Positions 1 to 31,905 of a DNA stretch of 32,000 nucleotides are shown piece by piece. The stretch is from Candidatus Nanobsidianus stetteri (GTDB taxonomy: Archaea; Nanobdellota; Nanobdellia; Nanobdellales; Nanobdellaceae). A model generated the notes under the pieces. That model searched no databases and was not told the DNA's origin. It was given only the letters and a program-made list of their open reading frames with translations. Each line of letters opens with the position of its first letter. Position 1 is the stretch's first letter. The translations under genes were made by a program, and so were the position numbers. Where the stretch lies: positions 43,014 through 75,013 of the forward strand of contig APJZ01000003.1 in assembly GCA_000387965.1 (NCBI GenBank). Reading direction: 5' to 3'.

Positions 1-1506
1 TGCAATTATACCAGTTATAACAGCAGCTTCAGAAGGAGATTGACCACTGGCTTCATATAATAATTCCATTGTAGCTCTCAATTGCGATGATGGTATTTTA
101 GATAGAGCTCCATATCTCATATCAAATATCGAATCATAAAATGATAAACCTACCCTTAAATTTTGATATACTTTTGATATAAAATCTCCAATTGGACTAC
201 CTTTATATTTTGGGTAAACATATATCATCGCCTTTTCGAGTGGATAACCTTCATTTAATGCAGAACTTAAAGATAATAAAAATGATGGCAAATCTGTTCC
301 TATTCTTTCTAAACTTTTATATAAATCTTTATAATGCGAATAGTAAATGAAAGCAATTAATGAAACAGATAAACCCGTTAAAAACACTAAAAATTCTGAT
401 AATAATATTCCTGAAATATCGAATTTATATAAATATTGATATATTACAAAAAAGATTATGAAAAATAGTAATATACCTACTGAAAGTCCACTGGCTACTG
501 ATATTAATTTATTTGTTAAATCTTCCCTCTTTAAATAATAAAATAGATATATATCATCATTTGAAAAAACATTAATAATTTTTGAGGAAATCGAATAATT
601 AATTGCATAAAATGCTAAAAATGGTATTAAAATATCAAATAATATAAATAAAACGAGAGGACTAAATATATTTTCTAAGAATATTGATGCAAGAGGAAAT
701 ACTGTTAATAACATAACTGGTAAAGTTATACCCAACATAGATACAAGATTTATTGTAGATCTTATTTCCCTAGAAAATTCATATAGTTCATTTACCAATT
801 CCTCCAAAGCTTCTTCTATGGATTTATCTATCTGGAAATTCCTTCTATCCTTATCTGGATCATATAAGGCACTTAATATAAGCATAATACCAGTATAAAA
901 GAATTTTGCATTTTTTTCCCAAGATCTTGAATATTCTACTAAAGCTTCTGATGCAGAAACATATTTTCTATTATATATATCTCTTAACAATCTTAACAAA
1001 TCTAATTTTAATGGTAAGTTAATATTTTTTGCGGCAAATAGTATAGCTTGTTCTACATTTGGATTTTGTCTTAATTTAATAGCTAACAATAATAATAGAC
1101 TTATTAATTGAGATTTCTTCTTGTTATATAAATTATTATATAAAATAACATAATAATAATCGATCAATATGTATGATAATATACCAAAGGAAATAAATAG
1201 TAAGAAATATAAAGTAGATATTATTATTGATGGAATTATTCCTATAAAGATGAATAATATTAGAAAAAATATTGCTGCCGAATCTATTTGATCAATGCTT
1301 ACATCTAAAAATAGTTCTTCATTTATTTTTTCAAAATTTTTTCTTTTTTTATTATTTGATTTTATCTTTATTATATTTCCAAATGTTTTAACAATCTTTT
1401 CATAATATTTTAATTTATTACCAAAATAGAAATATTTATATAACTTTAATTTACCTTCTAAATTCTGATTATCTAATCTATTTAACTCAATTTCTGATAT
1501 ATCCAT
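1..1506 (-). CDS. GspF/TadC/FlaJ-family polytopic membrane protein (partial; C-terminus lies beyond window start)
   Basis: Absent from the ORF track because it runs off the window edge. My manual minus-strand translation from ATG 1506-1504 (MDISEIELNRLDNQNLEGKLKLYKYF...) stays open for 502 codons down to nt 1. It alternates long hydrophobic runs with two soluble helical domains. Its start overlaps the stop of the upstream secretion ATPase by 25 nt, suggesting an operon. Confidence 0.6.
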   Translation of the reverse strand, partial: MDISEIELNRLDNQNLEGKLKLYKYFYFGNKLKYYEKIVKTFGNIIKIKSNNKKRKNFEKINEELFLDVSIDQIDSAAIFFLILFIFIGIIPSIIISTLYFLLFISFGILSYILIDYYYVILYNNLYNKKKSQLISLLLLLAIKLRQNPNVEQAILFAAKNINLPLKLDLLRLLRDIYNRKYVSASEALVEYSRSWEKNAKFFYTGIMLILSALYDPDKDRRNFQIDKSIEEALEELVNELYEFSREIRSTINLVSMLGITLPVMLLTVFPLASIFLENIFSPLVLFILFDILIPFLAFYAINYSISSKIINVFSNDDIYLFYYLKREDLTNKLISVASGLSVGILLFFIIFFVIYQYLYKFDISGILLSEFLVFLTGLSVSLIAFIYYSHYKDLYKSLERIGTDLPSFLLSLSSALNEGYPLEKAMIYVYPKYKGSPIGDFISKVYQNLRVGLSFYDSIFDMRYGALSKIPSSQLRATMELLYEASGQSPSEAAVITGIIA

Positions 1507-3725
1507 TTCTTCATATTATCTAATATATAATCTTTTACAATTTCATTATATTCTTTAATACTTTTATCCACATATTGATAAAACACTTCATTGTACGCAG
1601 AAACAAAATCTGCTTCTAAAATATCTTTCCTATTCTTTTCTCTTGCTATATCTACTAATATCTTTTTTGATAAACCTATTGTTTCTATCATATTCCATAT
1701 TCTTTCCCAAGATTTTGACAAATATCTTATCCTAGATGCAACAGCTTTTAATATATCAGAATCTCCATTTATTAATTCTAATGTTGGTTCTAAATTATCC
1801 TTTTCCGCATCATAAACCATTAAATCAACAAAACCTTTTTCTTTTAATGGATCCTGATCCCATAATTTTCTTACTTCAGTTATCCTTAATACTCTTCTAT
1901 ATCTTTTTAATCCAGAAGGTTCTTTAATTGGATTTACAATTACTATTATATCTGTAGCTTTGAATGATGTTTTAGGAACTCCAAGATCATTTACAACTCT
2001 ATCATATACTCCATAGGGGCTTTCTGCATGCAAAGTACCCATTACCGCATTCGCTACGGCACCAACTCTCATAGCTTCATATAATGTTAAAGCCTCTTTT
2101 GATCTAACTTCTCCAACAATTATAGCACTATCTCCCATTCTTAAAGATACTCTTAAACCTTCCTCAGCAGATAATTCTGCAGATTTTAATGAAAATGGAC
2201 TCCTAACTTTCATAGGAACTATATTATATCCTATTGATCTAAAAAATTCCGCAGGTATTTCTAGAGTATCTTCTACAGTTATCATCCTAACTTTTTTAGG
2301 TATTTCTAACATTAAAGCTGTTAATAATGATGTTTTACCACTTCCTCTTGTACCAGCAATTAAAATTGTCCTTCCATTTGCAACTAAAAAAGATAATAAA
2401 CCTGCAGCCTGATAATTTAGCATTTTATTATCTATAAATAAAGGCAAAGTCCATGGTTTACTTCTATGTCTTCTAATTATATATGATAATCCGAAGGGAG
2501 ATAATGGTGGTGATAATGCTGCAACTCTTAATAATATATTATTTCCAATTACTAAATCTGTATCTAAAACTGGATTTGCTTCATCAAATGGTCTTCCAGA
2601 TATTAATCTTAATTTTGTAGCCCAAGATTCTACCTCCCTTCTAGTTGGAGTTACATTTGTAACACACATTTCATATTTAGAATGCTGTAAATATATTGGA
2701 GTTATACCTGCTGGCGGGTTTATAAATAGATCTTCTAAATTTTCATCTAAAACTATTTTCTCTATTATTCCAAAACCAATCGTATATCTAATAATTATAC
2801 TTTTAATTAATTCCAACCTATTTTTATCTATATTTATATTATATATAGACATTAATTTCGCTAGTATATTATTTAGTATATTATTATATATTTCTCTCAA
2901 TCTTTCTACATCTAGATAATCTTCCTTTCTAGGTTCATATTCTTGTAAAATTTCTATTGCCTTATGGGATAAAAATGTTTCTTCAGAGAATATTTTATAT
3001 TCTTCTGGAAATATATAATATCTAAAAACTGTTTCTTCAGGATTCTTTAATATAAAAACTTCCGTATTTTTATCCAATCTATAAGAATCTACAATATTAT
3101 AACTTTCTGAAATTTTATTTATATATTTTGTATCTATAAATTTTGGTTTTATATCTCCCAATAATATTCTTCTATATATTTCTCTATTCCCAATTTGATA
3201 TCCGATTAGAAATGGTTTAATATACTTATATAAAGGCAATGATTCAAATTTTATTAAAAAATTATCTATCAATGATATTAAATTTGATATTTGATTTTCT
3301 AAATCTTTATTATTTTTTAATATTGACATTAATTTTCTTTTCATTCTTCTTATAAATATATATGTACCAATTGGATCTCTCAAATACCCTTTATCCAAAT
3401 AATCTATTATAGTTTTTATTTCGGAATATAATGGATTGCCAGTTAATAAATATTTATAATATTCCGATATATTATTTTTAATAGAGAGATATACATCAAG
3501 AAAACTATTTAATACTTTTATACTATCCTCATAATATTCTATATTTTCATCTTGCTCGATTACTATAGTATTTACAAATGGATCTATAGATAATATATTT
3601 AATATATATTCCATTATATTTGGATCATCTTCAATTGTAGCAATATTATTATAATTTTTAGCATTTACATATAATACTCTTTCTTTTCCATTCATTTTAA
3701 TTTCATATTGTAAATTATTTAGCAT
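1482..3725 (-). CDS. FlaI/GspE/VirB11-type secretion (archaellum or type IV pilus) ATPase with a long N-terminal extension
   Basis: 747 aa. Walker A AGTRGSGKTSLLTAL, Walker B-like AIIVGEVRSKEA and His-box-like GTLHAES are present. It is followed by a FlaJ-like membrane partner gene. Confidence 0.85.
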   Translation of the reverse strand: MLNNLQYEIKMNGKERVLYVNAKNYNNIATIEDDPNIMEYILNILSIDPFVNTIVIEQDENIEYYEDSIKVLNSFLDVYLSIKNNISEYYKYLLTGNPLYSEIKTIIDYLDKGYLRDPIGTYIFIRRMKRKLMSILKNNKDLENQISNLISLIDNFLIKFESLPLYKYIKPFLIGYQIGNREIYRRILLGDIKPKFIDTKYINKISESYNIVDSYRLDKNTEVFILKNPEETVFRYYIFPEEYKIFSEETFLSHKAIEILQEYEPRKEDYLDVERLREIYNNILNNILAKLMSIYNINIDKNRLELIKSIIIRYTIGFGIIEKIVLDENLEDLFINPPAGITPIYLQHSKYEMCVTNVTPTRREVESWATKLRLISGRPFDEANPVLDTDLVIGNNILLRVAALSPPLSPFGLSYIIRRHRSKPWTLPLFIDNKMLNYQAAGLLSFLVANGRTILIAGTRGSGKTSLLTALMLEIPKKVRMITVEDTLEIPAEFFRSIGYNIVPMKVRSPFSLKSAELSAEEGLRVSLRMGDSAIIVGEVRSKEALTLYEAMRVGAVANAVMGTLHAESPYGVYDRVVNDLGVPKTSFKATDIIVIVNPIKEPSGLKRYRRVLRITEVRKLWDQDPLKEKGFVDLMVYDAEKDNLEPTLELINGDSDILKAVASRIRYLSKSWERIWNMIETIGLSKKILVDIAREKNRKDILEADFVSAYNEVFYQYVDKSIKEYNEIVKDYILDNMKKWIYQKLS

Positions 3726-3763
3726 ATAAAGATTAATATATATTAAAATATAATAGTTTTACT

Positions 3764-4126
3764 ATGAATGATCCAGAGACACTTAGGAGATTAAAATATT
3801 TAGAAGAGAAAATTTCAATGTTCAATAATATACTGCAAACTATAGATGTAACTACCAGAAGTTCTTTAGATGATTTCAAATTAGAGATAGAAAACATTAA
3901 GAAAGAAATAAATGATATAAAACAAGAAATAAATGATATAGAAATAAAAATAAAGGCAATAATGGATGAATTATCAAATTTTGCTACTACAGATCAATTA
4001 AAAATTATAAATTCCATTCTAGACTACATAAATCCATTTGATTTTGTTACTAAGAAGGAACTGGATAAATTAGTAAAAGAAAAAATTATGGAATATCTCG
4101 ATAACCTATATAATCAAAAAGGTTAA
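3764..4126 (+). CDS. small coiled-coil protein, function unknown
   Basis: 120 aa with a heptad-like repetitive K/E/I/N sequence (EIENIKKEINDIKQEINDIEIKIKAI). It is divergent from the ATPase gene. Confidence 0.5.
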   Translation: MNDPETLRRLKYLEEKISMFNNILQTIDVTTRSSLDDFKLEIENIKKEINDIKQEINDIEIKIKAIMDELSNFATTDQLKIINSILDYINPFDFVTKKELDKLVKEKIMEYLDNLYNQKG

Positions 4127-4158
4127 ATTTATAATATTCAATATTTTTATTAAGAATT

Positions 4159-4863
4159 ATGAGAAGTCTACTCGGTCTATTTAGTAAGAAAGGTAATAAA
4201 GATCAGAGTGACCAACAGAATTTAGACAACCTATTTCAGGACTTTAATAGTCCAATACCACAAAATAATGGACCATTCAATCAATTTCAGCAGAGTAATA
4301 ATATTAATCCAATAGCAAATAATTACCAGAATTTTTCTTTTGGTCAAACAAATCAGCAAATGCCATTACAGCAAAATATTTCAAGCCAATTTAATCAGTC
4401 ATGGAACTTACCTCCACAACCAACCCCAAGTCCAAGTTTAAATCAATTTCAACCACAACAACAAGTTCAAAGTCAACCGGAATTTGGACAAAGTAATTTT
4501 TCTATAGATGATAGACTTGAACAATATATAAACAATACAATAAATGATATATTAAAAGATAAATTGAATGAAGTACATGATGAATTATCACAAATAAAAA
4601 TATGGAAAGAGAAAGTAGAATATCTTATTAATAAAATGCAAGAACAAATTGATAAATTAGATAATAAAATAACCGAAATAAATAATTTAGCAACTAAAAA
4701 ATTGGAAGAGTATGATAAAGGAATGCAAGAAGCAACAACAGAAATACAAGCATTACATAGATTGATAAGAACAATGATACCCGCAATATCTGAATCTACA
4801 AAAGAATTAAGAGAAACAGTAGAGGAATTAAAATCTTTAAGAGATTCAATTAGAAAACCTTAA
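4159..4863 (+). CDS. P/Q/N-rich low-complexity protein with C-terminal coiled coil (paralog of 12825-13217)
   Basis: 234 aa. The N-terminus is MRSLLGLFSKKGNKD, followed by ~100 aa of Q/N/P-rich sequence and then a long helical K/E-rich tail. Confidence 0.55.
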   Translation: MRSLLGLFSKKGNKDQSDQQNLDNLFQDFNSPIPQNNGPFNQFQQSNNINPIANNYQNFSFGQTNQQMPLQQNISSQFNQSWNLPPQPTPSPSLNQFQPQQQVQSQPEFGQSNFSIDDRLEQYINNTINDILKDKLNEVHDELSQIKIWKEKVEYLINKMQEQIDKLDNKITEINNLATKKLEEYDKGMQEATTEIQALHRLIRTMIPAISESTKELRETVEELKSLRDSIRKP

Positions 4864-4891
4864 ATTTTTTAATCCTTTTTAATAAATTTTA

Positions 4892-5290
4892 TTGATGGAT
4901 AAAAGGGAAACCATAATAGTAGGGATAATACTATTAATATTATTAGCATTAGGATTTATAATTGCTCCATTGTTATATCCAATAAATAATAACCAGAACT
5001 TAAATCAGAATCAATTATATCAAATATATCAGATTGCACAATACTGTCAAGATCTATGTATATATGCAAAGTATAATTTATCTATAAGTAACTTAAGTAA
5101 TACCTGTCTAGTATCAGAAAATTCTATATTATATCAATCTTGGATCTCTTATCCAAATGCATATAATTGGGGATGTGAAGTATCGGATAATAATTTGAAT
5201 TTGTGCAACAATAGTAATTATATAGTATTGGACGATAATTGTTCTATAATTAATATATATTATCAAAATAGACAATTAAATATAACATGA
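4892..5290 (+). CDS. small N-terminally membrane-anchored or secreted Cys-rich protein
   Basis: 132 aa. It has an N-terminal hydrophobic segment (IIVGIILLILLALGFIIAPLL), 7 Cys and several N-x-S/T sequons. Its stop overlaps the tatD start (ATGA). Confidence 0.5.
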   Translation: MMDKRETIIVGIILLILLALGFIIAPLLYPINNNQNLNQNQLYQIYQIAQYCQDLCIYAKYNLSISNLSNTCLVSENSILYQSWISYPNAYNWGCEVSDNNLNLCNNSNYIVLDDNCSIINIYYQNRQLNIT

Positions 5291-6124: not shown

Positions 6125-6664
6125 ATGTCAAAAAACCTTATAGGTATTATGAGCTACTTGCTCAATGAAAACTATTTAAAAATATTAGAATATATAGCGG
6201 ATAAAAAGGAATTTACAGAAAAAGAAATAAAGAGACAATTAAAGATAAAGGAAGAAGAAATTAGGAAACTATTATATATATTAGAAGAAAATAATATAGT
6301 ATATCCAATAAGCATAATAAATAATAATGGAAAATTTGATTTTAGATGGGGAAATAGAATACAAGATAAAGAAAAATTATTTAGCTTATTAATTAATAAA
6401 GAAATTAATAGAATTAATGAAGAAATTAAAAATACACCAAAAACATTATATTATTGTAATGAATGCGGAAGTGCATATAACTTTGATGAAGCATATGAAA
6501 ATGATTTTATATGTAAAGAATGCGGATCATTATTGACCGAAAAGGAAAATTTTAGAATAATAGAGTTAGAAAATATAATACATAACTTACAAATATTATT
6601 AGATAAATATTCTTCAAAGGTTGCAAAGAAAGAAAAAGCATCAAGGGCAAAGGGTAAAAAATAA
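6125..6664 (+). CDS. tfe: transcription factor E alpha (TFIIE-alpha homolog)
   Basis: 179 aa. It has an N-terminal winged-helix-like region and a zinc ribbon, CNECGS...(x16)...CKECGS. Confidence 0.75.
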   Translation: MSKNLIGIMSYLLNENYLKILEYIADKKEFTEKEIKRQLKIKEEEIRKLLYILEENNIVYPISIINNNGKFDFRWGNRIQDKEKLFSLLINKEINRINEEIKNTPKTLYYCNECGSAYNFDEAYENDFICKECGSLLTEKENFRIIELENIIHNLQILLDKYSSKVAKKEKASRAKGKK

Positions 6665-7868: not shown

Positions 7869-8276
7869 ATGGAGGAATGCATATTTTGTAAAATAATAAA
7901 TAAAGAAATACCATCATATATATTATATGAAGATGAATATTCTATAGCATTTCTAGATATAAATCCAATAAATAAAGGACATACATTATTTGTACCAAAA
8001 AAGCATTTTGAAAGAATATCAAATATTGATGATGAATATATAAAGAACTTCTATGTTAGTTTTACAAAGTTCCTAAAATTATTTGAAGAAAGAATGTCAA
8101 AGGATTATAATATAATAGTAAATAATGGAAAAAAAGCAGGGCAAGCAGTATTTCATGCACATATACATATAATACCACAATATAATGAAAATGGATATAA
8201 AAATATATTTAATTGGAATACGCACAAATTATCAAAAGAAGAGGCTGAAGAAATAATAAAAAAATTTACTTCTTAG
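7869..8276 (+). CDS. HIT-family (histidine triad) nucleotide hydrolase
   Basis: 135 aa with the histidine triad HAHIHIIP and an N-terminal CIFCKI motif. Confidence 0.85.
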   Translation: MEECIFCKIINKEIPSYILYEDEYSIAFLDINPINKGHTLFVPKKHFERISNIDDEYIKNFYVSFTKFLKLFEERMSKDYNIIVNNGKKAGQAVFHAHIHIIPQYNENGYKNIFNWNTHKLSKEEAEEIIKKFTS

Positions 8277-8965
8277 ACTTCTTTATATTCAATAATTCCA
8301 TCATTTACTATTTTAAATTTTATAGATATCCCTTCTGGTAAATATCTATGCTTTCTTAATATTGCCTCTCTAACACCATTATCTAAAATTCTTAATTCAA
8401 CCAAACACTTTGACCAATATTTTATTAAATCACCCCCAACAATTCCGATTGTATCCCTATTATCAAATAATGAATATACCTGATTTATAACTAGAACTGG
8501 TATATTATATTTCCTAGAAATTTCTGAAAATATTTGTAATTGTTTTGCAAGTTCTATATTTACTTCATTTACATTGCTATCGCCTCTTTCCAATCTATAT
8601 AACATTGATATAGAATCTACAACAATTAATCCGATATCATTAGAATTCTTTTTTACATAATCATATGTTAAATATATTGCCTTTTTTTGTTCAGAAAAAT
8701 TTACTGGCTTATATAATAATATATTTTTCATTGCGTTCTCAAAATCTTCTTTTGCAATTTGTTTTAATCTTTCAAGGGAAAAACCACCTTCAGTATCTAT
8801 ATATATTACCTTTTTTCCAAATCTAGAAACATTATAAGAAGTTATTATTGCAATATTTGTTTTTCCAGATGCAGAGGGACCATAAAATGATGTAATAATA
8901 TCTGTTTCAATACCTCCATCTAATAATTTATCTATGGGATATATTCCAGTAGAAATTTTACTCAT
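8273..8965 (-). CDS. radB: RadB-type RecA-family recombinase paralog
   Basis: 230 aa. Walker A GPSASGKTN and Walker B-like LIVVDS are present. It lacks the N-terminal HhH domain of RadA. Confidence 0.75.
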   Translation of the reverse strand: MSKISTGIYPIDKLLDGGIETDIITSFYGPSASGKTNIAIITSYNVSRFGKKVIYIDTEGGFSLERLKQIAKEDFENAMKNILLYKPVNFSEQKKAIYLTYDYVKKNSNDIGLIVVDSISMLYRLERGDSNVNEVNIELAKQLQIFSEISRKYNIPVLVINQVYSLFDNRDTIGIVGGDLIKYWSKCLVELRILDNGVREAILRKHRYLPEGISIKFKIVNDGIIEYKEV

Positions 8966-10280: not shown

Positions 10281-11359
10281 ATTTTAAATCTTAATATTGC
10301 ACCTATTTTAAAGTTTGAAAATTGTTCCCCTTCAGGATGGTTTTTTGATATTATTTCAACTTTTGCATTTGTTTGTTTTATTAAATCCATTAATTCTTTA
10401 ATTTTATCTTTATAATCTTCAGATATTAATATTGTATCTACTGCACCAATTTCTAATGCTTTTTTTACATCATCAAATCCATAAACTACAAGACCTGTAC
10501 CTTTTCCAAGATGTTCAAAAAATAATTTTACTAATTCTATTTCTCTTACATATTCTGTTTTTTCTAATACATCTTTTGCCCTTTCCAATAATTCTTTTAA
10601 TCCATATTCATTTGAATATGCTGTATCATATACACCTAGAACTTTTTGTTTAAGATGATATGGTAAATAATCCCCATTAACAAATTGTTCTTTAAGTAAT
10701 CCAGGTCCTCCAACCAAAATACCAACCAACTTATCTAAATCTTTTTCAAAATAGTTTCTAACTTCATCTGCTAAATATTTTAACCATAAATGAACATCTT
10801 GTTCTATTAGCCTTTGAAATCTTACAGAAGATTGTCCTCCCGCTCTTATTTTACCAGGAACCCATGATTGTTTATTTTCTAATATTATTAGTTGATTACC
10901 TTTTAATACTCCTATAGAAGCTTCTCCCCTATCTAAAACAATCAATCCATATATTTGTTTTGGTAATATTAGTTCTTTTAACGGATCTAATACAAATCTA
11001 GAATCACATCTATATAATCTAATATTTAATTTGTCTGGAGGTTCTATCGCCCATAACCTAATATCGACATCTCCAGGCTTATTTGAAATATTTCCACAGA
11101 ATATTACTAAACCCCTCTCAGGAAGTTTTTTTAATCCTTTTAGATAATTTATAATTTTTGCCAATGCATCCATTACATGTTGTCTGGTATTTTTATCCTT
11201 AATGTTTTGTGCAGTTGAATATTCATAACTTAAATGATCTAGAACTTTGGCTAAATCATATCCAGCTGGTATATAGTATGAAATTAGTTCTGTGGCTCTA
11301 CCATTATAATTACTTAATTCTTCTATTAACATTTGTAATTCAAGTTCTTCAACATCCAT
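10277..11359 (-). CDS. prf1: peptide chain release factor aRF1
   Basis: 360 aa. It has the GGQ motif (RAGGQSSVRFQR), the YxCxxxF motif (YRCDSRF) and a NIKS-position motif that reads NIKD. Confidence 0.9.
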   Translation of the reverse strand: MDVEELELQMLIEELSNYNGRATELISYYIPAGYDLAKVLDHLSYEYSTAQNIKDKNTRQHVMDALAKIINYLKGLKKLPERGLVIFCGNISNKPGDVDIRLWAIEPPDKLNIRLYRCDSRFVLDPLKELILPKQIYGLIVLDRGEASIGVLKGNQLIILENKQSWVPGKIRAGGQSSVRFQRLIEQDVHLWLKYLADEVRNYFEKDLDKLVGILVGGPGLLKEQFVNGDYLPYHLKQKVLGVYDTAYSNEYGLKELLERAKDVLEKTEYVREIELVKLFFEHLGKGTGLVVYGFDDVKKALEIGAVDTILISEDYKDKIKELMDLIKQTNAKVEIISKNHPEGEQFSNFKIGAILRFKI

Positions 11360-11383
11360 TATATAGAAAATTATGAATAATTT

Positions 11384-12076
11384 TTAAATACCAATGTATT
11401 CTCTTATATATTTCATATCATAATCTAAGTCCAATTTTTTTGATATGTTTAATATATTGTTTAAATCTCTATTAAGAAATTCTTCAGAATATGGAGAATC
11501 AGTTGGTATCGATTGAGATACATCTATTATATATGGAACATTATTAAATATAATTATATTATATTCTGAAAAATCTCCATGAATTAATTTAGCTTTATTA
11601 TATATTTTTTTATATTGATCCAATATATCAAAAAATAATCCTTCCTTATTTTCAATTGAATCATAACTATCATGTAATAATAATGGCCCTTTTTCATAAC
11701 CTACATATTCCATTACTAATATATTTCCCTTATATAAGTATGGAATTGGAACTCTTACCAAATTTTTATACATTTTTCTTAAATTCATATATTCTTTTTT
11801 TACCCATGTATATATTATTCCAATCTTTGTTCTTGGAAATTTATATATTCTTGGATCTGCCTTTAAATAATTTACCTGTTCTTTATAACTTATTGACATT
11901 ATTTTATATATCTTTATTGCAAATTTTCCAGATCTTACAACAATTGCTTCTTTACCTTCAGATATTAATGTTAAATCATCTTCAATATAATGATCTTTAT
12001 ACAATTTATCTAAATAGTATAATGTATTTTTATCAAATACCTTTCCATATACCTTCCATATTTCCCTATATTTCAT
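11384..12076 (-). CDS. RIO-type atypical serine protein kinase
   Basis: 230 aa with GKEAIVV...K, the catalytic LIHGDFSEYNIII, and IIDVSQS. Confidence 0.8.
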   Translation of the reverse strand: MKYREIWKVYGKVFDKNTLYYLDKLYKDHYIEDDLTLISEGKEAIVVRSGKFAIKIYKIMSISYKEQVNYLKADPRIYKFPRTKIGIIYTWVKKEYMNLRKMYKNLVRVPIPYLYKGNILVMEYVGYEKGPLLLHDSYDSIENKEGLFFDILDQYKKIYNKAKLIHGDFSEYNIIIFNNVPYIIDVSQSIPTDSPYSEEFLNRDLNNILNISKKLDLDYDMKYIREYIGI

Positions 12077-17417: not shown

Positions 17418-17857
17418 TTTATTTTTCTTTCTTTTGGTATAAAATCTTTCAATATATTATTTTTAATATAAACACTACATAAAATATCATTACCATCTTT
17501 TGCTATATAAAAACCATTTTCATAATTTTTTTCCAATTTTATATTTTCATAGAATTTATAAAAAAGGTTTTCCTTTTTTATTTCAATAATTTTATTAGAA
17601 TTTATTCCAAAAATTTGTGCACCTTCTATACTAAATCTATATATATTATTTTTCTCTATTTTAATTACATATAAACCATATTTTTTTATATATTTTTCAT
17701 CTAAAAAATCTGGAAAATTTTTATTAAACATATATATTTTATCTTTATTAATGAAAAATCTATATTTCTTTATTATTGACTTATCTATATTTATATTATA
17801 ATATTCTTCTATTTTCTTGAATATTTCTTCTATATTCTTTTTATTTAATTCCTTCAT
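17369..17857 (-). CDS. small conserved protein, possibly NIP7/PUA-like (tentative)
   Basis: 162 aa. GLYVIKIEKNNIYRFSIEGAQIFG resembles the NIP7-type N-domain/PUA architecture from memory only. It forms an operon with rfcL through a 4-nt overlap. Confidence 0.35.
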   Translation of the reverse strand: MKELNKKNIEEIFKKIEEYYNINIDKSIIKKYRFFINKDKIYMFNKNFPDFLDEKYIKKYGLYVIKIEKNNIYRFSIEGAQIFGINSNKIIEIKKENLFYKFYENIKLEKNYENGFYIAKDGNDILCSVYIKNNILKDFIPKERKINYSFTKDRPENTYVNK

Positions 17858-19080
17858 AATTTTTCTACAGCTTCTTTTATATATGATATTTCATTTTCAT
17901 TAAATCCTAGTATTTTTGCATACTCTTTTCCTATTTTTTCATTTTCTTTCATTAAAACAATTAATGTATTTATATATACTTCCCTAATTCTCTTTTTTGA
18001 TGTATGGACCTTCTTTTGTAAATTTTTTGATAATTCTTCAATTTTTTCCCTTATTTCCTTATTTTGCGATAATTTTTTTACATATTGTGGCATTCTATAT
18101 TTTGTAAATTTATTATATCTCTTTTCTTTTGCTAATGCAACTCCAGCATACATTAATGTTGTAAAATATTTTAATAGATCCCAATATTGTCTTCTATAAA
18201 TTCTTCCATAAAATACAACTGCCAAAGATAACCAATTATAAGCTTCATATATTTCTTTTATATTTTCATATTCATTTGATATATTTTCTTCAACCCATGC
18301 TTTAATTTCCTCAGGATCCATATCTACATCTGCAAATGGTAATGTAGCACCCATTATTGTGTTTGCCTTAAACATTTGACCCAATGCTCTAAATATTGTA
18401 ATCTCCCTTTCTCTATAACCTAAAACTTCTAAATCTTTCAATGTAATATGATTAGTCATTGTTGCCAATGCTTGTAGATCATTTATTGCACTTCTTAAAT
18501 CTCCGGATGATCTTTCTACAAGTGCAGATAATGCATTATCATCAATTGTTATCTTTTCATTTGTACAAATTCTCTTTAATTGTCTTATTATATCGGTATT
18601 TGATAATTTTTTGAATTCAACCATATCACATGAATCTCTTAATTTCTTAAATTTTGGATCCCATGGATCATTTGCAGTCAATATTATAGGCCATCTTGAT
18701 TCTTCTACTATTTTTACCAATGCTCCAATTCCACCTTTATCTTGAAATCCAGCTAGTCCATCTACTTCATCAACCAAAATTATCCTTCCTTTTTTGAAAA
18801 ATGGTTTTCCCTTTATTGCTTCTCCCAATTTTTCATGTATAACCCTTGCATTTCTATTATCAGAAGCATTTAATTCTACAACTTCATAATCTAAATCATT
18901 TGCAATTGCATATATTGATGAAGTCTTTCCAACACCTGGAGGTCCATATATTAATAATGCTTTTTTACTTACATTTGGATATTTTTCAATAAAGGATTTT
19001 ATTTTTCCAATAGCCTCTGATTGATTAATTATTTCATTAATATGTTTTGGTGCATATTTTTTTATCCATGGTTCAACCAT
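17854..19080 (-). CDS. rfcL: replication factor C large subunit
   Basis: 408 aa. It starts with WIKKYAPKHINEI, and has Walker A GPPGVGKTS, Walker B ILVDEVDGL and a sensor region SGDLRSAINDLQ. Confidence 0.88.
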   Translation of the reverse strand: MVEPWIKKYAPKHINEIINQSEAIGKIKSFIEKYPNVSKKALLIYGPPGVGKTSSIYAIANDLDYEVVELNASDNRNARVIHEKLGEAIKGKPFFKKGRIILVDEVDGLAGFQDKGGIGALVKIVEESRWPIILTANDPWDPKFKKLRDSCDMVEFKKLSNTDIIRQLKRICTNEKITIDDNALSALVERSSGDLRSAINDLQALATMTNHITLKDLEVLGYREREITIFRALGQMFKANTIMGATLPFADVDMDPEEIKAWVEENISNEYENIKEIYEAYNWLSLAVVFYGRIYRRQYWDLLKYFTTLMYAGVALAKEKRYNKFTKYRMPQYVKKLSQNKEIREKIEELSKNLQKKVHTSKKRIREVYINTLIVLMKENEKIGKEYAKILGFNENEISYIKEAVEKL

Positions 19081-19127
19081 TATTTATATTTTTATATCAA
19101 AATATATAGATTAATATATGTTATCTA

Positions 19128-19196
19128 ATAGTTACTATTTGATGATAGATAGTAACGATAAATTTAAAAAATTTTTCCAACAATAATTATAGTATG
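19128..19196 (+). promoter_or_regulatory. island promoter/operator cassette, copy A
   Basis: ATAGTTAC-N13-ATAGTAAC boxes, including the inverted repeat TTACTAT-N10-ATAGTAA at 19132-19155. The TATA-like TTTAAAAAA at 19163-19171 is centred ~27 nt before ATG 19194. It is near-identical to copy C (2 substitutions in the first 43 nt). Confidence 0.6.
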
Positions 19197-19808
19197 ATAG
19201 ATACATTCTCATATCAAAACAAATCTGAGATAATAGAAGAAAGAATAAGATGGGCTAGGCAAAGAGCTAAAGAAAGTGAAAGTCCTGATATGCATGGATA
19301 TGCAATAATATTAGAAGTACTGTATAATTTGGCGCGAGAGAGAGCTCCAGAAGTCTTACGACAATTAGAAAAAGTAGTAGAAAGGACAGATGCCTTTACT
19401 TATGATATTCAAAAATTATCAGCAATTAGAGACTACATTAGAGATCATATATCTCCTTCAGAACAAGAGAATACTCGCAAACAGAAGATACAATACTTAA
19501 AAGAAGGTTTAGAAAAACTATTAGACTGGGATGTAGAAGATTACCTATATGATTTGTATAAGAGTATACGTTCTGGAGATCTTATTCCATTAGATTTTGA
19601 TTTCTATCTAGAAAGAGTAAGAGATTGGGCATATTTTACTGGTCATAGATTAGATTGGGAAACTAAAATAAGGTATGCACGAAAAGAAGCAGCATATGAC
19701 CGTCTTAGCTCTCATATAAAATGTTTATTAAGTAATCCTGAAGGGTATATGCAACACCTGAAATCGGGCGATTTAGAAAAGTTTGTTAGAGAATTATGTA
19801 AGTCCTAG
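19194..19808 (+). CDS. island orphan protein A (204 aa, soluble, helical-looking, R/E/D/W-rich)
   Basis: Long ORF in locally G+C-richer DNA that uses CGN Arg codons (for example CGA at 19335-19337). The promoter cassette is positioned for a leaderless start. I recognise no motif. Confidence 0.7.
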   Translation: MIDTFSYQNKSEIIEERIRWARQRAKESESPDMHGYAIILEVLYNLARERAPEVLRQLEKVVERTDAFTYDIQKLSAIRDYIRDHISPSEQENTRKQKIQYLKEGLEKLLDWDVEDYLYDLYKSIRSGDLIPLDFDFYLERVRDWAYFTGHRLDWETKIRYARKEAAYDRLSSHIKCLLSNPEGYMQHLKSGDLEKFVRELCKS

Positions 19809-19925
19809 CTAGAGTTTGAGTAAATCAATTAAAAGTTGTGGAAAAAATCTGAAAAAGTATATACACAACACATATAAGAGAGAAAATTATACAAATAAGT
19901 AAAGAGCTAAGCAAAATAAAGTATC

Positions 19926-19944
19926 TTTTTGTTATATATTTTTT
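19926..19944 (+). terminator. oligo-T tracts downstream of island ORF A
   Basis: T5 at 19926-19930 and T6 at 19939-19944. Archaeal RNAP terminates at oligo-T, but T runs are common in AT-rich DNA. Confidence 0.25.
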
Positions 19945-19975
19945 AAAATATCAAATTATATATAACGAATTTAAT

Positions 19976-20042
19976 ATAATTACTGTATAATAGTAGATAA
20001 TAACAATAAACTTAAAAAATTTCTAATAATTAATTAGTTATG
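19976..20042 (+). promoter_or_regulatory. island promoter/operator cassette, copy B (diverged)
   Basis: ATAATTAC-N13-ATAATAAC boxes and CAATAAACTTAAAAAATTT align in register with copies A and C (roughly 80% identity by eye). The TATA box is centred ~26 nt before ATG 20040. Confidence 0.5.
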
Positions 20043-20726
20043 ACGGATGGACATGATATTAAGAATGACATAATAATTAAGTATGGCCTTTCCCATATAC
20101 TTTTTACTGAACTGCAGCAATGTGGAGCAGATTTCAAAAATACATTAGCAGAAGGAAATCGTCAAATATTATATATCACAATTGATGTATTTGAGAAAAT
20201 GGGTACTGAAATGTTCTATAAGGCAGACAAAACACTCCGATCATCATTAGATGAATTAATGAAAGCTATAATGGAATGGAGGAAATGTAAAACACCTCCA
20301 AATGATTATGATAGTCTTATAAGATGTCTAACAGAATGCCGCCTTACAACCGGTATAGCAGGGGCTATTAATGAATACTTAAAAGAAATTAACGCTACGG
20401 ACTTTGAAAAGAAAGTTTATAATTTAATCGAAGCTATAGAGCATCTATCACGTTCATATGTACTTGACGCTTTGTATGAAAGACTAAAAAATAAAACTAA
20501 TGATGAAATTTATAGATCTATAGATAAACTATCTAGAAATTCTGAATCCAAAGAAGGATCAACCAACTATCTAGAAAAAACTAAAAAAGGTGTTTATGAA
20601 ATTAATCATATTTTTCAAAAAGCATCTCAAGATGTTAAAGAGCCCATAAAAATTCTATTAAAAGATCCTAAAAAGAATATAAAACTATTTTATGCAATTA
20701 TAGGTTTTAATTTGTATAAAAACTGA
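20040..20726 (+). CDS. island orphan protein B (228 aa, soluble, helical-looking, Cys-containing)
   Basis: Long ORF with several CGN Arg codons (cgt, cga, cgc). It has its own promoter cassette. I recognise no motif. Confidence 0.7.
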   Translation: MTDGHDIKNDIIIKYGLSHILFTELQQCGADFKNTLAEGNRQILYITIDVFEKMGTEMFYKADKTLRSSLDELMKAIMEWRKCKTPPNDYDSLIRCLTECRLTTGIAGAINEYLKEINATDFEKKVYNLIEAIEHLSRSYVLDALYERLKNKTNDEIYRSIDKLSRNSESKEGSTNYLEKTKKGVYEINHIFQKASQDVKEPIKILLKDPKKNIKLFYAIIGFNLYKN

Positions 20727-20774
20727 AAAATCTCAACATCTTTAGATGATCATCATTATTAGAAGACATGCATA

Positions 20775-20780
20775 TTTTTT
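20775..20780 (+). terminator. oligo-T tract downstream of island ORF B
   Basis: T6 located 49 nt after the stop codon. Confidence 0.25.
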
Positions 20781-20842
20781 ATTCCTAGCCTAGTCATTAT
20801 TTTTATTTTAGAATATTAAAGTTACATAAAATATACTTAAGC

Positions 20843-20910
20843 ATAATTACTATTTGATGATAGATAGTAACAATAAATTTAAAAATTTTCCAACAATAAC
20901 TTTTAGTATG
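20843..20910 (+). promoter_or_regulatory. island promoter/operator cassette, copy C
   Basis: ATAATTAC-N13-ATAGTAAC boxes, with the inverted repeat TTACTAT-N10-ATAGTAA at 20847-20870. The TATA-like ATTTAAAAA at 20877-20885 is centred ~27 nt before ATG 20908. Confidence 0.6.
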
Positions 20911-21612
20911 AGATATATATCTTCAGATAAAGACTTATATGGAAAAATAAAAGGAGAAACTCTGAAAATAGAAGAAATATTGAAAAAAATAAAGGAAAAA
21001 AGAGGGATGGACAAGCTTATCGACGAAGTTGATGATTCACAATATTTTATAGAAGAAGTATTAAAAAAAATAAAGGAAAAAGAGGGGATAGACACACCTA
21101 TCGATGAAGTCGATAAGTTAAAATATTTTTATAAATACATAGTAGGGGACATACTCATAAAAATATCAACAAATGCGCCACAGACTGCAGGAAAATACGT
21201 AAGATTAGTAGAAAAATTACAGGAATTGGACATATGTAAAAGTTCTTTAATTAAAGATTGGGAAGCTCTCTACCAGTGTATGGGTGAATACTACTTTAAG
21301 ATTGGCATAATAATGGGTACCCGCCGTTATATTGAATTGCATGGTGAATTCTTATCTAAACCAGGAGAACTTGAAAATTTTATTAATGGTTTGGAAACTT
21401 TAGTAGATGGTAAAGTAATAAAGGGCCTGTATAAACTCTATCAAGAAGTAAAAGAACTAAACTCAAAATATCTATTAGATGTAAATAAATATAATCATTC
21501 AGTATCTCAAGAAGATATAATTATAATGTCATATGAATTAGCATCTAAGTTTGTTGCGGATCTTATATTTAGCTATTTATTAGGATATATATCATTAGAA
21601 ACTGCAATATAG
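20908..21612 (+). CDS. island orphan protein C (234 aa from Met 20908; contains a 2 x 27-aa tandem repeat)
   Basis: The ORF track opens this frame at 20854 (TTG/ATG inside the conserved cassette). The cassette geometry shared with A and B points to ATG 20908 (MRYISSDKDLYG...) as the start. It uses CGC and CGT Arg codons (TRRY). Confidence 0.65.
   Translation: MRYISSDKDLYGKIKGETLKIEEILKKIKEKRGMDKLIDEVDDSQYFIEEVLKKIKEKEGIDTPIDEVDKLKYFYKYIVGDILIKISTNAPQTAGKYVRLVEKLQELDICKSSLIKDWEALYQCMGEYYFKIGIIMGTRRYIELHGEFLSKPGELENFINGLETLVDGKVIKGLYKLYQEVKELNSKYLLDVNKYNHSVSQEDIIIMSYELASKFVADLIFSYLLGYISLETAI
20971..21132 (+). repeat. 81-nt in-frame tandem duplication inside island ORF C
   Basis: EEILKKIKEKRGMDKLIDEVDDSQYFI (20971-21051) versus EEVLKKIKEKEGIDTPIDEVDKLKYFY (21052-21132). 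The period is exactly 81 nt. Confidence 0.85.
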
Positions 21613-21698
21613 CAACATATAGATTATATGGTGACTGTAAAACAGAAAATCAAAATGCATAAGACTTTTTGATAAAATCTTTTTTATTTAATTTTTAT

Positions 21699-22118
21699 TT
21701 AATGACCAAATAAAGAGAAAAGTCCACTTAATATACCACCTTTACTTTCAACTATTTGGCATGGTAAAATTGCCTCATATTGATTACCATTCACAGTATA
21801 ATATACTCTTACATATGCATTTAATATAATAATATTATTATTTACACTACATGCATTCATAGATCCATAACTTATATTTCCTAAATTGCATGTTGAATTT
21901 TCATAGAAATTATATACTGTTACATTTTCCAAATTTTGTTTTGCAGTAATTATGATAAGAGATGTTCCATTTGAATATTGACAATTATATGTAAAATATT
22001 CCAAATATGGTGGCAAATAAGATGTTACATAATATGTATATATTGCATATAGCACAATCAATATAAAAGCTGCTACACCAACCCAGATTACAAATTTTGG
22101 TATCTTTGATATATCCAT
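21699..22118 (-). CDS. small N-terminally anchored or secreted Cys- and sequon-rich protein
   Basis: 139 aa. It has an N-terminal TM segment (FVIWVGVAAFILIVLYAIYTYYV), 4 Cys and several N-x-S/T sequons (NGT, NVT, NST, NIS). Confidence 0.5.
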   Translation of the reverse strand: MDISKIPKFVIWVGVAAFILIVLYAIYTYYVTSYLPPYLEYFTYNCQYSNGTSLIIITAKQNLENVTVYNFYENSTCNLGNISYGSMNACSVNNNIIILNAYVRVYYTVNGNQYEAILPCQIVESKGGILSGLFSLFGH

Positions 22119-22453: not shown

Positions 22454-23422
22454 TTATTTTCTACTTTGCAAACCTCTAAGCCCTATATATGCTAACAAAG
22501 CACCTAATTGTATTATTGGATCTGAACCTTCTAACAATCTATATTCTACTTCTCCAGCATAATATATTATATCTAATTTTTCTTTTTCTGGTATATTCAT
22601 AGAATAAACTTCTTTTGATAAATATTTAATTATATCTTCTCCTGCAAGACCATATTTTATCATTAAATCAATTAATTTTTCTCTAGCCTCAACAAATTTT
22701 CCTTCATATGCTAATTTTAATACTTCCTGTAATTCTTGCGGCTTTGCTACAGAAGCAACTTCATATATTAATTCTGGGGTTATATCTTTAGAATATAAAG
22801 CTGCAGCTTGTAACATATTTATTGATTTTCTCATATCACCTTCTGAAATATAGTATATTGCTTCTAATGCATCATCACTTATATTCAAATTTTCTTTTTC
22901 AGCTATTGATCTTAATAAATCGAATACATCTTTTTTATCTAATTGTTTAAATCTAAATATAACAGTTCTAGATTGTATTGGTTCTATAATTTTTGATGAA
23001 TAATTACATGCCAATATAAATCTTGTTATTGAAGAATATTCTTCCATTATTCTTCTCAAAGCTTGCTGTGCATCTCTTGTCATTGCATCTGCTTCATCCA
23101 AAAATACAATTTTAAATGGAAAATCTCCAATTGGTTTTGTTCTTGCAAATTCTTTTACTTTTTCTCTTATTACATCAATTCCCCTATCATCTGAAGCATT
23201 TAATTGTAGTACATTTTGTTCCCATTTATCTCCATATAATTCTCTTGCCAATGCCAATGCAGCAGTTGTTTTTCCAACACCAGCAGGTCCTGCAAATAAT
23301 AGATGAGGCATATTTTTATTCTCTACAAATGCCTTCAATCTTTTTACTATTTCATCTTGTCCTTTTATATCATCCAATCTTTTTGGTCTATATTTTTCTG
23401 TCCATATTTCATTCTCTGGCAT
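22454..23422 (-). CDS. rfcS: replication factor C small subunit (intein-free)
   Basis: 322 aa. It starts with [13 protein letters not shown], and has Walker [10 protein letters not shown], Walker B LDEADAMT, an SRC-type motif (QSRTVIFRF) and sensor 2 [11 protein letters not shown]. Confidence 0.92.
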
Positions 23423-27360: not shown

Positions 27361-27726
27361 ATGAAAAAGATAGGTGATGTAGAATTAAGATTGGCAAAAG
27401 GACCCGTTCCACATTATAAAGAATTAAAAGAATTAGAAAGAAGTATAGTAAAAGTAATTATTGAAGAATTCGGGACAGAAGAATTAATAAAAAGATATTC
27501 AAATCCATTATGGTTTAATTCTTTAGCATGTTTACTTGGATTTGAATGGAATTATTCTGGAATGACTACTGTAACTCTAAAAGCATTAAAAGAAATATCT
27601 ATAGAAGATAATCTGCCAATAATTGTTTTAGGAGGAAAGGGAAAGGATTCTAAAATAACTGAAGAGATAGAAACTAAAGATATAAAAGACAAATTAAAAG
27701 ATAAGATAAAGGTTTATTATCAATAA
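27361..27726 (+). CDS. truncated duplicate of the N-terminal part of the gene at the right window edge (possibly DUF763-like N-domain)
   Basis: 121 aa. Its 3' 50 nt (27663-27712) are the exact reverse complement of 31951-32000. Homology decays after that point, and a stop follows 5 codons later. The DUF763 family recall (WF..L....GF.W..SG.TT...ALKE) is from memory and is tentative. Confidence 0.55.
   Translation: MKKIGDVELRLAKGPVPHYKELKELERSIVKVIIEEFGTEELIKRYSNPLWFNSLACLLGFEWNYSGMTTVTLKALKEISIEDNLPIIVLGGKGKDSKITEEIETKDIKDKLKDKIKVYYQ
27663..27712. repeat. left arm of perfect inverted repeat
   Basis: AGAGATAGAAACTAAAGATATAAAAGACAAATTAAAAGATAAGATAAAGG equals the reverse complement of 31951-32000, checked base by base. 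Confidence 0.95.
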
Positions 27727-27832: not shown

Positions 27833-27905
27833 GGGACCGTGGTCTAGTGGCTATGACGCCACCCTTACAAGGTGGAGGTCCGGGGTTCGAATCCCCGCGG
27901 TCCCA
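27833..27905 (+). tRNA. tRNA-Val (anticodon UAC), no intron, no encoded CCA
   Basis: Hand-folded cloverleaf. The acceptor stem is GGGACCG/CGGTCCC, the anticodon stem CCACC/GGTGG with loop CTTACAA, and the T arm CGGGG-TTCGAAT-CCCCG, with discriminator A. It is 47/73 G+C by my count. Confidence 0.9.
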
Positions 27906-30005: not shown

Positions 30006-30455
30006 TTATAAATATAATCCTTGATAATTTGAGAAAATAGATATTTTAACTGCCATTTTAACACCTTTTCCTATATTTGCTAATTGATACAAATTCCAAT
30101 CATTTGTTATCATCTCTATTTTATCATCTAAGTCGTGATCTTGTAATATTTCTACTGGTTTTCCTTTTATGTATTTTTCTAATTTACTATATTGAGGTCC
30201 TATATAAGAAATGTCAAAAATAGTTCCCTCTAATCTATATGAATCAAATATTTTTTTGTTATAATTTGATAAATTATTTATAATTTTTTTGTAAGAATAC
30301 TTAGGAACATAAATGCTACCAATTACTTTAAATGGGTTTTCCAAATTTTCAATATTTATATATGAAGCTCCAGATATTTTAAGGATATATAGATCCGCAC
30401 TTATCGCCGTTATTGGCCCATCTTCTATATTAAATAATTTATAGTTACCCAACAT
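30006..30455 (-). CDS. hypothetical protein within the redox operon
   Basis: 149 aa ORF with no recognisable motif, flanked by PDO and trxB on the same strand. Confidence 0.45.
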   Translation of the reverse strand: MLGNYKLFNIEDGPITAISADLYILKISGASYINIENLENPFKVIGSIYVPKYSYKKIINNLSNYNKKIFDSYRLEGTIFDISYIGPQYSKLEKYIKGKPVEILQDHDLDDKIEMITNDWNLYQLANIGKGVKMAVKISIFSNYQGLYL

Positions 30456-31233: not shown

Positions 31234-31905
31234 TCATATATTTATTAATTCATTTAATTTTCTCAAAGATCTTAATTTAAAATTATTATTAACTTTTGCT
31301 TCTTCAATTGCATTCCTTAATAATTCTGCTTCTTCTAACATTAATGTTCTTTTAACATAATATGGTTTTCCAACTTTTGTTCCATGTGCAAATGTATATA
31401 TTATTGGATCTTTCCATGATAATTCACTTCCATATATTATTTTTGCGGTATATGCCAGTGCTCTTAACAATCCAGGTCCAAAACCTTTTATAAATAATAA
31501 ATCTTTGAAATTTTCTACAGTCCTATTAATTTCCAATGCTTTCCAATATATTTTATCTGGTATCTTTAAATAGTAAGGTAATTCCTGATAAAATATATAA
31601 TCATTGTTTTCTTTATTAATATATTTTAATATAGTATTATTTTTATTTTGATATGATTTTAATCTTATTATATATTCTTTTATTTTTTCTATTCTCTCAT
31701 CATTAATTATTTCTAAAATATTCTTCCTTAATTCTTCAGATTCTTTTGATGATAAATTTAATGTTTTTGTATTTGACCCAAAACCAATTTGGGAATCATC
31801 AAAATAATTTATATTTATCCAATGAAATCTTCTGACTTTTTGTTCTTTTATTGACATTTTTTGATTTATAATAGTCATATTACTTTTTTCATCAGAAATT
31901 TCCAT
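31234..31905 (-). CDS. C-terminal part of a conserved protein (HhH-like GFGPGLLRALA; possibly DUF763 C-domain)
   Basis: 223 aa. Its ATG (31905-31903) lies inside the last codons of the upstream partial ORF, which is in another frame. It contains WKDPIIYTFAHGTKVGKPYYV. The family call is tentative and from memory. Confidence 0.55.
   Translation of the reverse strand: MEISDEKSNMTIINQKMSIKEQKVRRFHWININYFDDSQIGFGSNTKTLNLSSKESEELRKNILEIINDERIEKIKEYIIRLKSYQNKNNTILKYINKENNDYIFYQELPYYLKIPDKIYWKALEINRTVENFKDLLFIKGFGPGLLRALAYTAKIIYGSELSWKDPIIYTFAHGTKVGKPYYVKRTLMLEEAELLRNAIEEAKVNNNFKLRSLRKLNELINI

Follow-up and report, generated by a model that had tools for sequence, protein, structure and literature searches.

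What kind of DNA would stand in closely similar copies before three consecutive genes that the original prediction described as unrelated-looking? This question is raised by a 32,000-nucleotide (nt) stretch of contig APJZ01000003.1 (positions 43,014 to 75,013; hereafter the window; GC content ~24%) from Candidatus Nanobsidianus stetteri (Nst1), a nanoarchaeon of a Yellowstone hot spring, in which a conserved cassette heads each of three consecutive same-strand open reading frames (ORFs) of 204, 228 and 234 amino acids (aa), here genes A, B and C. The answer that we favor, at a probability of about 0.7, is that the cassette belongs to a duplicated bidirectional promoter region held under purifying selection, at which a putative factor would bind just upstream of the TFB recognition element (BRE) and TATA box and from which leaderless, single-gene transcripts would be made.

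The three cassettes (19128-19196, 19976-20042 and 20843-20910) are in register with one another as far as the ATG codons at 19194, 20040 and 20908, as had been proposed. All lie on the plus strand. Cassette A has a family-specific operator-like element at 19128-19156, made up of box 1 (ATAGTTACTAT, 19128-19138) and box 2 (AGATAGTAAC, 19147-19156), then a BRE/TATA segment (GATAAATTTAAAAAA, 19157-19171) and a spacer through 19193 to a predicted leaderless start. Up to the start codon, cassette B (19976-20039) holds box 1 at 19976-19986, box 2 at 19995-20004, BRE/TATA at 20005-20019 and a spacer at 20020-20039, and cassette C (20843-20907) holds the same parts at 20843-20853, 20862-20871, 20872-20885 and 20886-20907. 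Copies A and C differ by the predicted 2 substitutions within their first 43 nt (G/A at 19131/20846 and G/A at 19157/20872), and copy B, put at ~80% identity by eye, is 80% identical to C and 70% to A (ungapped, 60 nt). The CAATAAA element described as common to all three is absent from copy A, which has CGATAAATTT (CGATAAA). Matches of the box pair ATARTTAC-N13-ATARTAAC with 0 mismatches were found at these three sites of the window only, the inverted repeat TTACTAT-N10-ATAGTAA was recovered in A and C, and the 10-mer ATGATAGATA of copy A indeed occurs twice, at 19142-19151 and again at 19194-19203. For the 23-nt core GATARTAACRATAAAYTTAAAAA, 3 occurrences in the window compare with 0.04 expected by chance.

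To place these copies in a wider set, related loci were collected, some from contigs that encode homologs and others through a single degenerate-23-mer scan of metagenomes. In 428,650 nt of such DNA, an nhmmer search with the cassette profile located 164 copies (141 unique), of which exactly 3 lie in the window and none falls outside the gene arrays. A protein of at least 60 aa was readable downstream of 148 copies, all of them belonging to one family; in 135 cases the predicted start codon opens a complete ORF of at least 100 aa, and 17 extend past the end of their contig. Scored with a weight matrix, the boxes (-65 to -37 relative to the ATG) had no convincing nanoarchaeal counterpart outside the arrays, where the sole match reached 9.3 out of a maximum of 44.2. 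When the exact pattern was sought across metagenomes, the nanoarchaeal matches fell inside family arrays, and matches lacking a full cassette came from contigs that showed no resemblance otherwise and in many cases differed in GC content; a scan of a genome collection with the exact 23-mer gave two Nanopusillus metagenome-assembled genomes (MAGs) and one chance match only. Two Nanopusillus MAG contigs end at such a unit or just past it, one (L002, position 1) just after the first array gene and the other (L003, position 2584) inside a cassette. Array sizes in MAGs are underestimated, because the cassette repeat evidently fragments short-read assemblies.

Across the 141 unique copies the consensus reads tATArYTwCTATyTrrTrAyAGATArTAACrATArrTTTAAAAA, then a T-run, a spacer of ~17 nt and T|ATG, with most of its variable positions toggling by transitions. 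Its downstream half has the geometry of a leaderless promoter, as originally claimed: TTTAAA lies 29-31 nt from the ATG in 122 of the 141 copies (in the window, 31 nt for A, 29 nt for B and 30 nt for C, counted from the first T of TTTAAA, or from CTTAAA in B), the base preceding the ATG is T in most, and a Shine-Dalgarno-like motif, searched for at -20 to -1, was found in 0 of 141. Every position of TTTAAAAA is at least 91% conserved, and a purine-rich BRE (RATARR at -36 to -31) is conserved across the 141 copies directly upstream of the TATA box. In Nanoarchaeum equitans, TTTAAA stands 26-27 nt before mapped transcription starts and T-stretches act as terminators (PMC3491384), and archaeal initiation typically occurs ~23 bp downstream of the TATA box (PMC4247193). 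The predicted 5' ends would fall 0-4 nt before the ATG, which we count as leaderless, and the mRNAs are predicted to carry a single gene each and to end at oligo-T runs. This half of the cassette had been thought to be dedicated to these genes, and there the claim did not hold, as a TATA-like 8-mer centred at -31 to -23, with a sharp peak at -28 to -25, is present at 16 of 36 other window genes, such that the TATA box and its leaderless spacing are genome-generic. Between the TATA box and the start, an A-run and a T-run (19168-19176, 20014-20022 and 20881-20889 in the window, and likewise in all other copies) vary among near-identical copies (A5-6, T0-7) with the total spacing held at 29-31 nt. 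By moving the 5' end of a leaderless mRNA, slippage in these runs could turn a gene on or off.

The genes behind the cassettes proved not to be unrelated, but to be diverged paralogs by hhalign and by BLAST clustering. Gene A (19194-19808, plus strand, 204 aa) is identical to Nst1_464 and falls into subfamily A1 of an orphan all-helical family; gene B (20040-20726, plus strand, 228 aa) is identical to Nst1_465 and falls into subfamily D4; gene C (20908-21612, plus strand, 234 aa from the ATG) falls into subfamily C0. Pairwise BLAST among the three is marginal. Profile comparison linked A-type with C-type proteins (hhalign probability 96%, E=4.7e-9) and B-type with C-type proteins (E=5e-5), whereas A and B compared directly gave only a weak match (E=0.053), their link being transitive via C. 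The 137 unique proteins downstream of cassettes form a single BLAST component (E<=1e-5) with at least 5 subfamilies, and A, B and C each sit in a different one. An alignment of five sequences, one of them a two-domain protein of 400 aa that a Nanopusillus MAG encodes at the same site, showed the shared motifs CKs.LtND.E.L..C.DEY.F..GI, GLE.L..G..VI..LY..Y and L..YL.NPe. Members of ~400 aa (L002 19-1221, minus strand; P0001-P0017) consist of two family domains fused in one ORF. Gene C carries an 81-nt (27-aa) tandem duplication at 20968-21129 whose copies are 81% identical, and the family expands internally as well.

Searches of the family against Pfam, PADLOC, PHROG and PDB sequences returned no match. 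An AlphaFold2 model of the gene A product has ten helices (pLDDT 92) and found no significant structural neighbour in the PDB or BFVD; the family proteins look cytoplasmic and helical, with no signal peptide or transmembrane segment. HMMER searches of 1.84 billion cluster representatives recovered only 40 clusters at 50% identity, and a set of 5.8 billion sequences held 54 family proteins, for which the named sources were Nanobsidianus or Nanopusillus and the others metagenome records. Compared at matching synonymous divergence (dS ~0.15-0.3), the ratio of nonsynonymous to synonymous substitution rates (dN/dS) was 0.4-0.6 for family orthologs against 0.03-0.14 for the flanking replication factor C (RFC) and 549-aa genes and 0.16-0.25 for a 139-aa gene at the right edge of the array; values of dN/dS >1 came from pairs at 41-45% identity, saturated or paralogous, and were discarded. 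By these sequence comparisons, the members are deeply diverged paralogs of a previously undescribed, fast-evolving orphan family of hot-spring Nanoarchaeota.

Set against this divergence, the promoter DNA has changed little. The boxes ATARYTWCTAT and AGATARTAAC, at -65 to -37, are conserved in all copies, and cross-subfamily identity is 0.70 for box 1, 0.75 for box 2 and 0.84 for BRE/TATA, as compared with 0.61 for the spacer, 0.46 for the first 33 coding nt and 0.48 far upstream (-121 to -90). These segment identities are equal within a locus and between loci, so that gene conversion or homogenisation within a genome need not be invoked. In a distant lineage whose array lies beside CTP synthase, -65 to -23 is nearly unchanged. 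The contig concerned (L078) carries a stable three-gene array (2988-5212) and a lone family gene 6 kb off (11233-12005), all four with the cassette, and small HEPN/nucleotidyltransferase-like and PIN-like ORFs lie nearby. The sequences show strong constraint on the boxes and the TATA box, and we conclude that both are held by purifying selection. Such selection on the box site would account for promoter DNA that stays 75-85% identical while the proteins fall to ~15-25%. From their conservation and position, we infer that the boxes are the binding site of a putative transcription factor that would co-regulate all family members. Sitting just upstream of the BRE, this factor may act by recruitment and activation, or by repression through blocking of TFB/TBP, and at the first copy it may act on the divergent neighbour RFC-L too. 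The first codons, ATGGTAGATACA (M-V-D-T-S-S; 19194-19205, and +1 to +12 of most copies), are also kept across subfamilies. Residues 1-7 of gene A are disordered in the model despite this conservation, and the codons resemble box 2 (TAGATA); they could form an extra operator half-site or reflect a constraint on leaderless translation.

Three other accounts of the cassette bear directly on these data. If it were simply the consensus promoter of an AT-rich genome, found upstream of most genes, one would expect the TATA-like 8-mers and the leaderless geometry seen at other window genes, but one would not expect the profile and the box matrix to match family genes only in 428 kb, the 23-nt core to exceed chance expectation as it does, or the nanoarchaeal matches of the metagenome-wide scan to be confined to family arrays. 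For -65 to -37 the family-only matches refute this account, in keeping with the original view of the boxes as something other than a generic consensus, and we hold it very improbable overall. More improbable still is that TTACTAT-N10-ATAGTAA works as a hairpin, whether to terminate the upstream gene or as a small RNA or cruciform: a stem of 7-8 bp is predicted in A and C, yet the fold z-scores are -1.6, +1.3 and +0.1, copy B has no stem, copy A has no same-strand upstream gene to terminate, pair -62:-37 is A:C in 72 of the 141 copies, and there is no Rfam match. We rejected a hairpin or small RNA on the grounds of non-significant DNA folding, no covariation across the 141 copies and the lack of an Rfam match, and for the same reasons the inverted repeat is taken as a DNA-level site. 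The least probable of the three is that the cassette encodes a conserved N-terminal extension, an idea that draws on a 252-aa ORF (20854-21612) predicted from a TTG within cassette C and on a comparable ORF in L078. Indels of one nucleotide put the copies in different frames, as the original prediction had noted in placing the conservation at the DNA rather than the protein level; moreover, the ORFs of A and B start at ATG, conservation ends at the ATG, and a TATA-to-ATG distance held so constant suits a promoter. The TTG predicted as the start of gene C, at 20854, is an artefact of an open frame.

How the cassette came to stand before every gene can be read from the DNA around it, where the similarity exceeds what had been described, for it neither ends at ~68 nt, reaching instead to about -120, nor is confined to the cassette. 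The conserved block further upstream (TTAGAATATTAAAAT.TGTA ... CAACCATTAT) is the promoter and start codon, on the opposite strand, of the gene for the replication factor C large subunit (RFC-L; 17854-19080, minus strand; Pfam AAA, RFC lid and RFC1_C domains), which is divergent from gene A and with its 5' end bounds the duplicated unit on the left. The AT-rich, RFC-L promoter side of the 113-nt divergent intergenic region (19081-19127, minus strand) recurs within the arrays of other strains. The first 26 nt of RFC-L (ATGGTTGAACCATGGATAAAAATATA) are found with <=5 mismatches in 34 internal spacers, followed there by short ORFs only. In the window, the intergenic region between A and B (19923-19962, plus strand) contains oligo-T, terminator-like runs that are decayed RFC-L relics, derived from both its 5' coding sequence (19927-19944, resembling 19045-19062) and its promoter (19948-19962, resembling 19094-19108), and the region between B and C (20769-20809, plus strand) contains further RFC-L relics, one equal to 19051-19062 of its 5' coding sequence (20769-20780, 12/12) and one resembling its start region 19078-19092 with the CAT (20795-20809). 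The T-runs in the B-C spacer are likely the terminator of gene B, and the RFC-L stub, read on the plus strand, probably supplies the oligo-T run that terminates the preceding gene.

The right boundary of the array (21613-22118, minus strand) comprises the 3' flank and the 139-aa membrane-protein gene (21699-22118), beyond which lie a 104-aa ORF and the gene for the replication factor C small subunit (RFC-S; 22454-23422, minus strand), whose conservation as a flank anchors the synteny. The 3'-terminal 40 nt of the 139-aa gene (21699-21738 in the window) persist as relics in 26 internal spacers of other strains' arrays, the relic ending ~143-158 nt before the family ATG in most cases and ~121-122 nt before it in four. 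Internal spacers thus hold stubs of both flanking genes, which shows that the whole interval was joined head to tail, giving the repeat-unit order right flank, left flank, divergent intergenic region, gene. As read from these stubs, the module (~150-190 nt) reproduces the entire divergent intergenic region between RFC-L and the first family gene, and the cassette is its best-conserved core. Head-to-tail joining of the interval from RFC-L to the 139-aa gene left each gene with its own promoter and each spacer with flank stubs, and recombination between modules later expanded, contracted, shuffled and occasionally relocated the arrays. Junctions carrying sequence from both ends of the interval (the RFC-L 5' relic and the 139-aa-gene 3' relic) record interval duplication followed by rearrangement between modules.

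Such rearrangement is evident among close strains. Arrays are found mostly between RFC-L and the 139-aa membrane-protein gene and in at least 3 genomic contexts in all. At the RFC-L site they hold 2, 3, 4, 5, at least 6 or at least 9 genes in an order of subfamilies that differs between strains, while RFC-L and RFC-S are 93-99% identical across them (RFC-L in syntenic loci, 93-98% aa identity). One contig (L066) has a 4.46-kb array of four genes with their cassettes (417-4877) inserted into a homolog of the window's 149-aa ORF 30006-30455, disrupting that ORF at the equivalent of window positions 30228/30238; the insert ends within the RFC-L relic around CCATGG, with the first 14 nt of RFC-L at its left end and the continuation of the relic at its right, such that it is circularly permuted. 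The original suggestion that promoter and ORF move as one unit is borne out by these arrays, which are shuffled and relocated as promoter-plus-ORF units.

These dynamics invite a further account, in which the module is conserved chiefly because promoter-plus-ORF units are assembled, reordered and relocated by recombination that uses it as substrate or as a specific site, with regulation secondary, much like an integron without a recognisable integrase. The shuffled gene order among close strains, the spread over at least 3 contexts, the well-preserved flank relics, which sit ahead of different subfamilies at a junction largely constant in position (mostly ~143-158 nt from the ATG, ~121 nt in four), the circularly permuted insert with its ends around CCATGG, and the Nanopusillus contigs that end at or just after a cassette unit, as repeats would cause, all speak for it. 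Nevertheless, cassette identity is no higher within a locus than between loci, conservation of the boxes and TATA box exceeds that of the flank relics and extends to the distant lineage, in which the RFC-L relic far upstream is much harder to recognise, the 39 long ORFs scanned in the 32-kb window encode no integrase or site-specific recombinase and only a RadA/RadB-type ATPase, no attC-type hairpin is conserved, and the evidence for relocation is one examined junction. We therefore consider this account unlikely, though a serious contender. In a similarly tentative vein, the module may in addition be the exchange site of a Nanoarchaeota-specific cassette system in which highly divergent allelic variants of one locus are concatenated, reshuffled among strains and carried to new sites as self-expressing units; the crossover point would then be the joint of the RFC-L 5' stub and the 139-aa-gene 3' stub around CCATGG. 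Mapping of crossovers, by asking which cassette segments track the upstream and which the downstream gene, gave weak gradients only.

Returning to the duplicated promoter region as our preferred explanation, several points weigh against it. In some spacers the presumably functionless flank stubs are only 0-3 mismatches from the real genes, and this upstream of different subfamilies, so near-intact stubs mean that part of the module similarity could come from recent copying or recombination instead of selection. The boxes can be read equally as a dyad or as a direct repeat: the ATAR motifs lie 21 nt apart, 6 of 8 positions of the TTACTAT/ATAGTAA dyad are near-invariant without covariation, and no compensatory changes were seen. 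The boxes also lie upstream of the RFC-L promoter and, at the first copy, might serve RFC-L and not the family gene. Pfam scans revealed no obvious specific transcription factor encoded beside the array in the window. Lastly, the transcription starts, single-gene transcripts and co-regulation are all inferred from the DNA. The window does encode a TFE-alpha-like general transcription factor (6125-6664) and a short RadA/RadB-type recombinase paralog (8273-8965), neither of which adjoins the array.

A separate observation concerns the DUF763 gene, which in the window is split into an N-terminal third and a C-terminal two-thirds on opposite strands ~3.5 kb apart (27361-27726, plus; 31234-31905, minus) and in two related contigs (L007 and L008) is intact (363 aa). 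Because it is split here and intact there, we posit a ~4.2-kb inversion in the window with a breakpoint in the DUF763 gene, adjoining tRNA-Val (27833-27905). It may represent a genuine split gene of the nanoarchaeal type or else an assembly artefact such as the Nst1 authors mention.

Neither the family nor the cassette is mentioned in the papers on Nst1, Nanopusillus acidilobi and single-cell Nanoarchaeota, and the Nst1 paper reported a very low paralog density. The paralog family was missed since its proteins have diverged beyond simple clustering, and it could be recognised only via its conserved promoters. Evolving fast, varying in copy number between near-identical strains and restricted to hot-spring Nanoarchaeota, it is a candidate arms-race locus, and a candidate locus for host interaction or conflict in an obligate ectosymbiont for which very few adaptive genes are known; if the exchange-site idea were true, it would be a dedicated diversity-generating locus in a very reduced archaeal genome, plausibly serving host interaction or virus defence. 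For practical purposes, the module can be used as a marker to find and count arrays in metagenomes, and the 29-nt box element offers both a bait for a nanoarchaeal transcription factor and a sharply defined test case for the control of leaderless promoters in DPANN archaea.

Known systems resemble this locus in different respects. Arrays of single-gene units with variable content and order, related repeats between them and more than one genomic site recall integrons, but integron cassettes are mostly promoterless and have a 3' attC hairpin and an adjacent IntI integrase, whereas here each unit has its own promoter. Among the 39 long predicted ORFs of the window (short and overlapping ORFs being outside the scan) Pfam detected no IntI, integrase or recombinase, no conserved or covarying attC-like hairpin was found, and every unit has its own BRE/TATA; by these tests the locus is not an integron. 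Ordinary tandem segmental duplication with unequal crossing-over comes closer, as the same flank stubs at largely fixed junctions are what head-to-tail duplication predicts; unlike in that process, the promoter module here stays recognisable while the coding regions have diverged past easy detection, and subfamilies are reshuffled between close strains. For the boxes, the nearest archaeal parallels are Ptr2 of Methanocaldococcus jannaschii and TFB-RF1 of Pyrococcus furiosus, whose sites lie directly upstream of BRE/TATA, two of them about two helical turns apart, and are suited to TBP/TFB recruitment. Those sites were defined biochemically, whereas the nanoarchaeal boxes are known from conservation and position alone, and repression by occlusion is equally possible for them.

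Two bacterial systems match the combination of conserved control DNA and variable genes. The vlp and vsp loci of Mycoplasma are tandem arrays of diverged paralogs in reduced genomes, with a conserved promoter and 5' region per gene, homopolymer tracts in the promoter and a size and order that vary by strain, all as here; they encode surface antigens and switch by poly-A slippage or by site-specific inversion. The nanoarchaeal arrays differ in that the TATA-to-ATG distance is held at 29-31 nt despite A/T-run variation and in that the proteins have no signal peptide or transmembrane segment. In Borrelia burgdorferi, every paralog of the erp loci, carried on cp32 prophages, is preceded by a conserved promoter and operator of ~145 bp (the 'upstream homology box'), through which shared DNA-binding proteins can regulate the genes together, with cross-talk (PMC9112904). 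The erp system is bacterial, with a sigma-70 promoter, a 14-nt leader, several prophage plasmids, known binding proteins (BpaB, BpuR and EbfC) and surface lipoproteins with conserved leader peptides as products, whereas the one described here is archaeal, predicted to be leaderless and a single chromosomal tandem array, with a putative regulator and cytoplasmic-looking helical proteins. Even so, in keeping conserved control DNA before diversified, polymorphic and recombining paralogs, the erp upstream homology box and operator is the closest analogue of the nanoarchaeal module.

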